From: Octopus sinensis
Taxonomy: Eukaryota
Assembly (NCBI RefSeq): GCF_006345805.1
Contig: NW_021835959.1
Coordinates: forward strand, 1-64,000
DNA length: 64,000 nt
Direction of reading: 5' to 3'
Shown here: in pieces, positions 19,589 to 31,349 of the stretch
How the letters are laid out: every line of letters starts with the position of its first letter
How positions within the stretch are numbered: position 1 is the first letter of the stretch
The notes under the pieces: model-generated
Told to the model about the DNA's origin: nothing
The model's input: only the letters and a program-made list of their open reading frames with translations
The model's database searches: none
Position numbers and translations under genes: made by a program

Positions 19589-20095
19589 CAGTGGTTCTCA
19601 ACCGAGGTCCGTATGGGCCTTGAGGGTCCGTATAAGATTTTTGGGTGTCTACGCCACAAAACAGTAAATTGGGGATCCACAATAGCATTTTAAGGATCCC
19701 TGAAAAAGATTATGCTTTAGATGTATGTATTCGTATGTATTTCAAGAAACAACTTGCTTTCTTTCTTGAACATTTTACATAGACTAACCTACACAAGTTA
19801 ATGTGTGAAAAACAAAATAGGAACTCTGTAAAAAGTTTCCATAAAACTAGTTTTATAGAGATACAACACGTAATTTTGTCAGTGAACGGGTCGCGGTCTC
19901 AAAGCGACGAAAATATTTTGGCAAATTAAATTTAAATGTTGAAGTGAATCTAATGGTTTTTGTGTGTTTCTTAAATGGCTTATAAACACCTTCCACGCTG
20001 CAATAGTTTTTAAACATCGAATGTTTATGGGGTCAACAATAATAAAATTGTAATCAAAGGGGTTCATAAATTTAAAAAATGGTTGAGAAACCCTG
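19589..20095. mobile_element. hAT (Charlie-like) MITE
   Basis: TIRs cagtggttctcaacc / ggttgagaaaccctg; exact 8-bp TSD ggctaaac at 19581 and 20096. Confidence 0.9.
19872..20008 (+). mobile_element. copy of the G3:C8-HHR repeat nested in the MITE
   Basis: Same sequence as the right arm of the 26.4-kb palindrome; core reads gtgaacg (A9G). Confidence 0.8.
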
Positions 20096-25132: not shown

Positions 25133-25710
25133 GGCAGCGAGCTGGCAGACACGTTAGCGCGCAGGGCGAAATGCTTAGCGGTATTTCGTCTGCCGCCACG
25201 TTCTGAGTTCAAATTCCGCCGAGGTCGACTTTGCCTTTCATCCTTTCGGGGTCGATTAAATAAGTACCAGTTACGCACTGGGGTTGATGTAATCGACTTA
25301 ATCCGTTTGTCTGTCCTTGTTTATCCCCTCTGTGTTTAGCCCCTTGTGGGTAGTAAAGAAATAGGTATTTCGTCTGTCGCTACGTTCTGAGTTCAAATTC
25401 CGCCGAGGTCGACTTTGCCTTTCATCCTTTCGGGGTCGATTAAATAAGTACCAGTTACGCACTGGGGTCGATATAATCGACTTAATCCGTCTGTCTGTCC
25501 TTGTTTATCTCTCTGTGTTTAGCCCCTTGTGGGTAGTAAAGAAATAGGTATTTCATCTGTCATTATGTTCTGAGTTCAAATTCAGCCGAGGTCGACTTTG
25601 CCTTTCATTCTTTCGGGGTCGATAAATTAAGTACCAGTTGCGTACTGGTGTCGATCTGATTGACTGGCCCTCTCCCCAAAAATTTCAAGCCTTGTGCGTA
25701 AAATAGAATA
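25133..25710 (+). mobile_element. SINE family B trimer
   Basis: Body start ggtatttc(g/a)tctg at 25180, 25364 and 25547 (period about 184 bp). Confidence 0.92.
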
Positions 25711-26152: not shown

Positions 26153-26501
26153 GCATAATTTTTTTTTATTATTATTGATTTTGCTACAACTTTTTTTTCA
26201 TATATTTGTAATACTGTCTTCATAATATGACACAGTAATGAAAGAAGACAATGTATCATCTACAGCAATCCCTCACCATATCGCGGTTTACCTATCGCCG
26301 TTTAGTACTTAAGCTTACGCCGATTCCTCTGTGGTGTTGTTTTGCATTTATAATAAAATATTACGGAGATGTACTCGCATAGCAAGTAATTTGATCTGAG
26401 ATCGTGTGCTGAAACGAAAACAATTGCAGCGTGGAAGGTGTTTATAAGCCATTTAAGAAACACACAAAAGCCGTTCGATTCACTTCAACATTTAAGTTTA
26501 A

Positions 26502-26551
26502 TTTGTCAAAATATTTTCGTCGCTAAAATCCGCGACCTGTTCACTGACAAA
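26502..26551 (-). ncRNA. type-I HHR fold, G3:C8 core (GUGAACA)
   Basis: Mirror image of 26585-26634. Confidence 0.65.
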
Positions 26552-26584
26552 GTCCGTGCTGCATCTCTGAGATGCAGCACGGAC

Positions 26585-26634
26585 TTTGTCAGTGATCAGG
26601 TCGCGGATTTTAGCGACGAAAATATTTTGACAAA
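26585..26634 (+). ncRNA. type-I HHR fold, G3:C8 core (GUGAUCA)
   Basis: tttgtca-GTGATCA-g-gtcgc[ggatttta]gcgac-GAAA-atat-TT-tgacaaa. Confidence 0.65.
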
Positions 26635-26999
26635 TTAAACTTAAATGTTGAAGTGAATCGAACGGCTTTTGTGTGTTTCTTAAATGGCTTATAAACACCT
26701 TCCACGCTGCAATTGTTATAATAAAATAAATATATACAAATTATAAAAACAATTTTAAAACATACATAGTTCAGTACCGCTTCTACTTCGCGGATTTTCA
26801 CCTATCGCGGGGGTGGTTTTAGAACGTAAAACCCTCGATAGTCGAGGGATCACTGTATTTTCAATATAATAAAAAAGAAAAACAAGCTTAACCGCCAACA
26901 AGACAATTTAAAAAAAAAAACTCATCGTATACCTGCAAAGAACGTAATCTAAAAACCAACAGCGCATATCCAAACACACTTAATTTCCTTGATGGGAAT

Positions 27000-31169: not shown

Positions 31170-31349
31170 CAGTGAACAGGTCGCGGTCTCAAAGCGAAAA
31201 TATTTTGACAAATTAAATTTAAATGTTGAAGTGAATCTATCGGTTTTGTGTGTTTCTTAAATGGCTTATAAACACCTTCCACGCTGCAATTGTTTTCGTT
31301 CCAGCACACGATCTCAGATCAAGTTACTCGCTATGCAAGTACATCTCTC
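31170..31349 (+). mobile_element. third locus of the G3:C8-HHR repeat
   Basis: Reverse complement of 26367-26546; core gtgaaca kept, 3 nt lost at the stem II/GAAA junction. Confidence 0.8.

Follow-up and report, generated by a model that had tools for sequence, protein, structure and literature searches.

That positions 3 and 8 pair in the active hammerhead ribozyme has its textbook proof in engineered constructs with the two bases exchanged. Hammerheads also occur naturally in the terminal repeats (pLTRs) of Penelope-like elements (PLEs), and folds of this kind are described, in the parts of the report available, as having no activity as monomers and low activity as dimers (PMC4209133). For a PLE of Anolis, the accessible text describes two RT start sites that bound a tail, both strands being cut and extended, with uncut RNA as the main template and a ribozyme that needs protein (PMC11167929). 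In print, as far as the available portions go, a G3:C8 core is an engineered and partly active mutant (PMC11167929; PMC3884650; PMC8495972). No natural G3:C8 hammerhead was found in the literature searched, whose coverage was partial and without Lunse et al. 2017 (PLE hammerhead variants). The accessible parts of PMC6765202, PMC6155905, PMC10085705, PMC11014351, PMC7229834, PMC2377424 and 10.64898/2026.07.22.740005 hold nothing on G3:C8.

Here we describe a near-perfect palindrome with a G3:C8 fold in each arm from Octopus sinensis. It lies in a window of 64,000 nucleotides, the whole stretch of DNA that was analysed (contig NW_021835959.1, positions 1 to 64,000). The features are listed below in window coordinates, and unit positions are counted outward from the centre of the palindrome.

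26263–26855, no strand: MITE-like host element, about 225 bp without the insert, with TIRs that begin CAG and TA on either side (from paralogue comparison)
26348–26360, plus strand: left copy of the TSD, 13 bp (exact repeat)
26361–26418, minus strand: 58-nt tail (unit positions 150–207), present on the left arm only; in coding copies it runs from the pLTR into the ORF
26419–26567, minus strand: left arm, read as a pLTR copy (unit positions 1–149)
26452, minus strand: mirror copy of the pLTR ATG
26502–26551, minus strand: hammerhead fold 1, with G3 at 26544, N7 (A) at 26540 and C8 at 26539; predicted cut between 26509 and 26508
26566–26570, no strand: junction, where G-AGATG opens both arms with one extra T between them
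26569–26717, plus strand: right arm, read as a tailless pLTR copy (unit positions 1–149), its final 2 nt overlapping the TSD
26585–26634, plus strand: hammerhead fold 2, with G3 at 26592, N7 (T) at 26596 and C8 at 26597; predicted cut after 26627
26585–26591/26628–26634 and 26600–26604/26613–26617, plus strand: stem I and stem II of fold 2
26599, 26618 and 26621–26626, plus strand: extra G, G12 and palindromic stem III of fold 2
26684–26686, plus strand: ATG within the pLTR (unit position 116), which opens the ORF in coding copies and is cut short here
26716–26728, plus strand: right copy of the TSD, 13 bp (exact repeat)

The inverted arms measure 149 nt each and are 99% complementary around a single central T (26568), which reproduces the geometry of the original prediction, and their sole mismatch (26596/26540) falls on core position N7. 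The insert is asymmetric, as the left arm extends a further 58 nt, so that the unit, read outward, measures 207 nt in the left arm and 149 nt in the right. The 13-bp sequence TTATAATAAAATA is duplicated exactly at the two edges. Ten paralogous host elements all lack the insert and have the TTATAATAAAATA site once, so the duplication is a true TSD, as had been proposed, and contigs from four public runs join across it (loose ends). The host had been called a Tigger-like MITE; a TA-flanked element with 12-nt TIRs (10/12 alike) is indeed present, with 41 matches from the 40 scored of 1,255 candidates, and it is putatively Tigger-like. A fold-back artefact, the danger named at the outset, is ruled out: the flanks show no mirror symmetry, the host element resumes past the insert, a second contig has the same insert, and the geometry recurs at 39 other sampled loci. 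That second contig (L002, G000:C8903:24704-27863) repeats the whole region at 99.4%, the N7 change included, and is probably a haplotig or a recent duplication. Upstream of the palindrome, 25180–25692 holds three tandem copies of a repeat of about 184 bp. Two older solo pLTR copies with G3:C8 also lie in the window, both on the plus strand, one at 19858–20008 with G at position 9 and the other at 31170–31347 with a broken stem II.

The arms are almost certainly pLTR copies of a PLE. Across the 2.72 Gb of genome searched, the arm is a high-copy repeat; an 18-nt core pattern has 6,011 exact matches and its control 0. Some copies run upstream into common sequence leading to an ORF. One locus (L044) contains a whole element, in which an inverted 3' UTR, pLTR and tail are followed by a partial 5' pLTR whose tail enters the ORF. 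This frame of 715 aa has the RT motifs SMDVVSLYPSI and YVDD, a C-x3-C-x2-C linker and a GIY-YIG-type end, and it is followed by 3' UTR sequence of about 1 kb and then by a 3' pLTR that ends at unit position 149 in (TA)n. Another locus (L294) has a 3' UTR and a full 5' pLTR with G3:C8, and its frame, opening at the ATG inside the pLTR, stays open for 534 aa to the end of the locus. Unit positions 2–207 of the palindrome differ from this coding copy at 2 of 206 positions (99% identity). The genome also has a 1,042-aa open frame of the element, and the best named protein relative is from Octopus vulgaris (58%). At five of the seven loci with at least 82% RT identity, the G3:C8 fold follows the ORF. 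Pfam gave nothing above cut-off for the ORF (RVT_1 at E 0.14; a relative gives GIY-YIG at E 0.003), and the PLE label therefore rests on directly read motifs and on architecture; a search of solved structures with the ORF returned no match. The architecture comprises a repeat flanking a single ORF that reads RT then GIY-YIG by its motifs, an inverted 5'-truncated copy, a one-sided tail, TSDs of variable length and AT-rich or (TA)n targets. Four public runs, whose RNA nature is a guess, have contigs over parts of the element; these contigs were not used as evidence. The unit had been predicted to be non-coding and PLE-mobilised. Its link to PLEs is borne out; 'non-coding' is not supported, as the unit serves as pLTR to an element that codes for protein and whose first ATG lies within the unit.

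Both arms can be parsed as stem I (7 bp), GUGANCA, G, stem II (5 bp), GAA, AAUAUU and U17. The topology is that of type I, in which stems I and II meet a short, palindromic stem III at a three-way junction, and stems I and II form the minimum-energy structure of the 50-nt folds (z −3.2 and −3.4). The conserved residues U4, G5, A6, A9, G12, A13, A14, A15.1, U16.1 and H17 (here U) are all present, and in place of the literal consensus C3 and G8 the arms carry G3 and C8. Parse and folding thus agree with the minimal type I hammerhead with a compensatory G3:C8 core claimed for each strand. As foreseen, the fold escapes the CTGANGA pattern, and it escapes Rfam too: a scan of the region gave no hammerhead model match at E up to 10, and all that it returned were miRNA-hairpin matches that fall short of the gathering scores and are put down to chance. 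The stem III duplex is predicted to be near neutral (−0.2 kcal/mol), and free cofolding of two 50-mers did not yield the stem III dimer. The construct proposed earlier (26570–26660) is predicted to keep stem I only about half the time. For 26585–26634 or unit positions 1–80, most stem I pairs have a predicted probability higher than 0.9. Read-through RNA of the palindrome is predicted to form one long hairpin in which the probability of either fold is zero, and the supposed design of one ribozyme on each strand gives way to the usual by-product of PLE insertion.

The mismatch at N7 had been offered as evidence, being at the one free position of the core. Genome-wide, N7 is A in 5,116 of 5,251 matches (97.4%; 135 differ) and is no more changeable than other core positions, so that the variable N7 expected across copies is not found; the T in the right arm is a private substitution with no evidential weight. 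In 98 copies, counted by eye after two inverted rows were dropped, positions 3 to 9 carry 2, 2, 2, 1, 3, 4 and 1 changes. Excess conservation of the core, which had also been anticipated, was not seen in these 98 copies, as is expected for decay after insertion.

The swapped core is a family state, common to the focal family and an older one. The conservation of G3 and C8 across copies that had been put up for testing is seen in the 6,011 exact matches and in two families. Only 64 genomic matches have positions 3 and 8 both changed, many of them from sister families. A search with position 3 not G and positions 7–9 free gave 329 hits; among the 100 listed and counted by eye, G8 occurs in 51 of 55 sister-family hits, and C8 remains in 38 of the 41 single mutants of the focal family and in all 4 hits of the older family. 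Matches with position 8 changed and G3 kept number 406 in the genome, and the 100 of these that were listed have G in 40 and T in 41 (by eye). Among these 100 the C8-to-G transversion is as frequent as C8 to T, which is an excess of this transversion. G3·G8 is found in two of nine ORF-linked 5' pLTRs. A G3·G8 subfamily is not supported, as copies of this kind occur across subfamilies and, in two palindromes, C8 persists in the partner arm.

Sister families carry C3:G8 or U3·G8 in a homologous fold, which has the same stem II start, a related downstream pLTR and, in one family, an RT 54% identical over 814 aa. The older family (30 among 100 matches listed) has G3:C8, mostly C at N7, a varied loop II and a shorter stem III with a 4-nt palindrome; no RT remnant was found within 1.5–3 kb of 27 of its G3:C8 copies. 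Across five families, U4, G5, A6, G12, A13, A14 and the 3:8 pairing are kept against a background of diverging loops and flanks. In 32 rows chosen by hand from five groups, GC makes up 16 of the 3:8 pairs, CG 11, UG 4 and other 1; the patterns behind this choice already specified parts of stem II and, in the older family's case, G3 and C8 as well. Two pairs of stem I, one of stem II and 15.2:16.2 also change on both sides (comparisons of 32 and of 16 rows). Stems I, II and III therefore covary, as had been expected of a conserved fold, through few independent events, because about five families underlie all rows. In a tree with positions 3 and 8 masked, both G3:C8 families fall on one side of a branch (95/96), subject to a long-branch warning. 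The swap is read as derived because published PLE hammerheads have C3:G8, and it was likely one event that persisted.

Two sister families show further core states. An old one has a U3·G8 wobble core (L080, L087, L089 and L154). A young one with frames above 1,000 aa has C for A9 together with C3:G8 (L121:5863-5914, plus strand, and at least 20 further hits in L121–L134), and older copies of it (L155, L159) keep A9. C9 in an active sister family, with no visible compensation, suggests a loose constraint on catalysis in the clade.

The arrangement of the palindrome is common in the genome. Seventy successive loci of the first contig yielded 76 core-matched arms, 48 of which have a head-to-head partner within 150 bp. 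The 3' ends of the arms lie at about unit position 149 in 28, at 207 in 35 and elsewhere in 13. Among 39 resolved head-to-head pairs, 34 combine 149 with 207 and five have one arm ending elsewhere; symmetric pairs (149+149 or 207+207) are absent from these 39. PLEs are already known for inverted copies and for tails on one side only, so two of their terminal repeats inserted head to head, as in this palindrome, are nothing out of the ordinary. At five loci (L260, L261 and three more), the head-to-head junctions were joined via the self-complementary stem I (7-nt microhomology), at the predicted cut site.

The starts of the copies inform on their template. Copying of the 5' cap as an extra G is part of retrotransposon biology. 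In a set of 190 loci chosen without regard to the first base, with one duplicated locus counted twice, G precedes AGATG in 19 of 25 starts without parental UTR (p 1e-7 against 0.25), whereas all 21 parental contexts have C or T there. Because the G is missing from the parental 3' UTR context, we infer that it is a copied cap and that transcription starts at the A (26570 on the plus strand, 26566 on the minus strand). No clear pile-up of copy 5' ends is seen at the predicted cut site (position 60), either among 100 ends listed or among 30 examined by script. By eye, 12 of the 100 lie there (neighbours, 3 to 15), five of these 12 being explained by stem I microhomology; the scripted count is 6 of 30. 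The extra 5' G in 19 of 25 starts and the lack of a clear pile-up indicate that copies are made from uncut RNA.

An insertion mechanism can be proposed on this basis. The element protein would cut both target strands 13 bp apart, and each of the two opposite strands would prime a cDNA on capped, uncut leader RNA, at RT start sites 58 nt apart (unit positions 149 and 207). Both cDNAs would extend to the cap and would then be joined at the centre of the palindrome. Because RT starts downstream of the cut and the copies include upstream sequence, the ribozyme would have to be mostly off on the template, which would fit a slowed core. In the 207-nt leader (26361–26567, minus strand), unit positions 1–6 are predicted to pair with 197–202, just before the tail end, a pairing that would close the leader beside the second RT start site.

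From the sequence evidence, the locus is probably a 5'-truncated head-to-head pLTR insertion of an autonomous PLE whose lineage-wide G3:C8 fold likely still cleaves slowly, in a dimer- or protein-dependent manner. That self-cleavage would be measurable in some form is, on its own, a somewhat better than even prospect. The uncut templates, the C9 core of an active sister family, the changes at position 8 and the almost neutral stem III duplex weigh against a simple active ribozyme. A fuller reading, to which we give slightly less than an even chance, is that the lineage is active, that its working G3:C8 hammerhead has been selected to be slow and so spares uncut leader RNA, and that the insertions record two-primer RT of one capped RNA. 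The fold could instead have been kept as a structural, protein-binding or promoter element of the pLTR, with catalysis dead or irrelevant and G3:C8 maintained for folding only. The uncut templates fit such a role, as does a sister family that transposes with C9 instead of A9. Also in keeping with it, the accessible text on the Anolis PLE describes ribozyme mutants without effect on insertion and no reads ending at the cut site (PMC11167929), and Naiad PLEs are described as proliferating without hammerheads (10.1101/2021.04.23.441226, in the parts available). Yet the core residues and the 3:8 pairing are kept in five families despite diverged loops and flanks, and the 3:8 pairing belongs, according to the available part of the report, to the active conformation (PMC8495972). 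We therefore regard a purely structural role as unlikely, though a serious contender, and still favour a fold that cleaves slowly.

The unit might also be an independent, non-autonomous and retrozyme-like one that replicates via ribozyme-processed, possibly circular RNA, the palindrome then being a functional design of two ribozymes. Solo units with fixed ends 1–207 are common and far outnumber the 34 tail-to-ORF junctions, and solo or paired copies could be transcribed from an internal start and re-mobilised. The unit, however, is bounded by the inferred cap site and by the two RT start sites, and not by the cut site, and its near identity (99%) to the pLTR of a coding copy, together with the ORF's ATG and first codons inside it, ties it to the autonomous element. 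The predicted loss of both folds in read-through RNA speaks against a two-ribozyme design. The sampled copies are solo or head-to-head, with no head-to-tail arrays of the bare unit in the 70 loci; one 484-bp tandem was found, but it included host flanks. A non-LTR retrozyme was rejected on these grounds, the retrozyme-like part of the original prediction falls with it, and independent replication of this kind is improbable. Least probable of all, and by our estimate very much so, is that the two core changes arose by chance in a founder and spread with the success of that source element. Their placement on one branch implies one event, as a founder effect would; against this, two specific transversions restore a known pair, which has been kept through two families with changed loop II, stem III, N7 and flanks.

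A natural lineage that keeps the swap would widen the core consensus of the hammerhead, and surveys based on CUGANGA would undercount ribozymes; in this one genome, over 6,000 copies go unseen by the pattern and by Rfam alike. The natural C3:G8, U3·G8, G3:C8 and C9 cores of the clade, with their open ORFs, form a ready series on catalysis versus transposition. If a slow working G3:C8 hammerhead is present, PLE ribozyme function and the insertion mechanism become directly testable.

Compared with known systems, as described in the accessible parts of the sources, the octopus folds are closest to the minimal type I hammerheads of PLE pLTRs. They share the topology, the extra base between 9 and 10.1, G10.1-C11.1, the short palindromic stem III, the pLTR location, many solo copies, and opposite-strand pairs, there 100–700 bp apart (PMC4209133). 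The rows of Fig. S3 in that study contain only C3:G8, U3:A8 and U3·G8 and no cephalopod, whereas the octopus core is G3:C8. The element itself resembles canonical EN+ PLEs of the Neptune or Nematis type in having RT followed by a GIY-YIG-type domain, a CX2-5CxxC linker, pLTRs, an inverted 5'-truncated copy, a tail at one end and (TA)n targets (10.1101/2021.04.23.441226). Its linker motif fits Neptune and Nematis both, the likeness being drawn from the published description, and its tail measures 58 nt as against 30–40 in canonical EN+ PLEs (10.1101/2021.04.23.441226). Non-LTR retrozymes are likewise short repeats of animals that bear type I hammerheads and are related to PLE pLTRs, but they are head-to-tail repeats with circular RNA, whereas the octopus unit is solo or head-to-head and lies within a coding element (PMC7229834; 10.64898/2026.07.22.740005). 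Natural covariation at 3:8 has a precedent in the U3:A8 variants (PMC3088659; PMC4209133). These retain the pyrimidine-purine order, whereas G3:C8 reverses it by two transversions. The Poseidon element PAc of Anolis is similar in its two RT start sites that bound the tail, the use of both strands, AT-rich targets, a hammerhead near the ORF start and uncut RNA as template (PMC11167929). It differs from the octopus element, in which the ATG lies downstream of the fold. In PAc, C3G/G8C is an engineered mutant in which cleavage is partly restored (PMC11167929), whereas in the octopus G3:C8 is the natural state.
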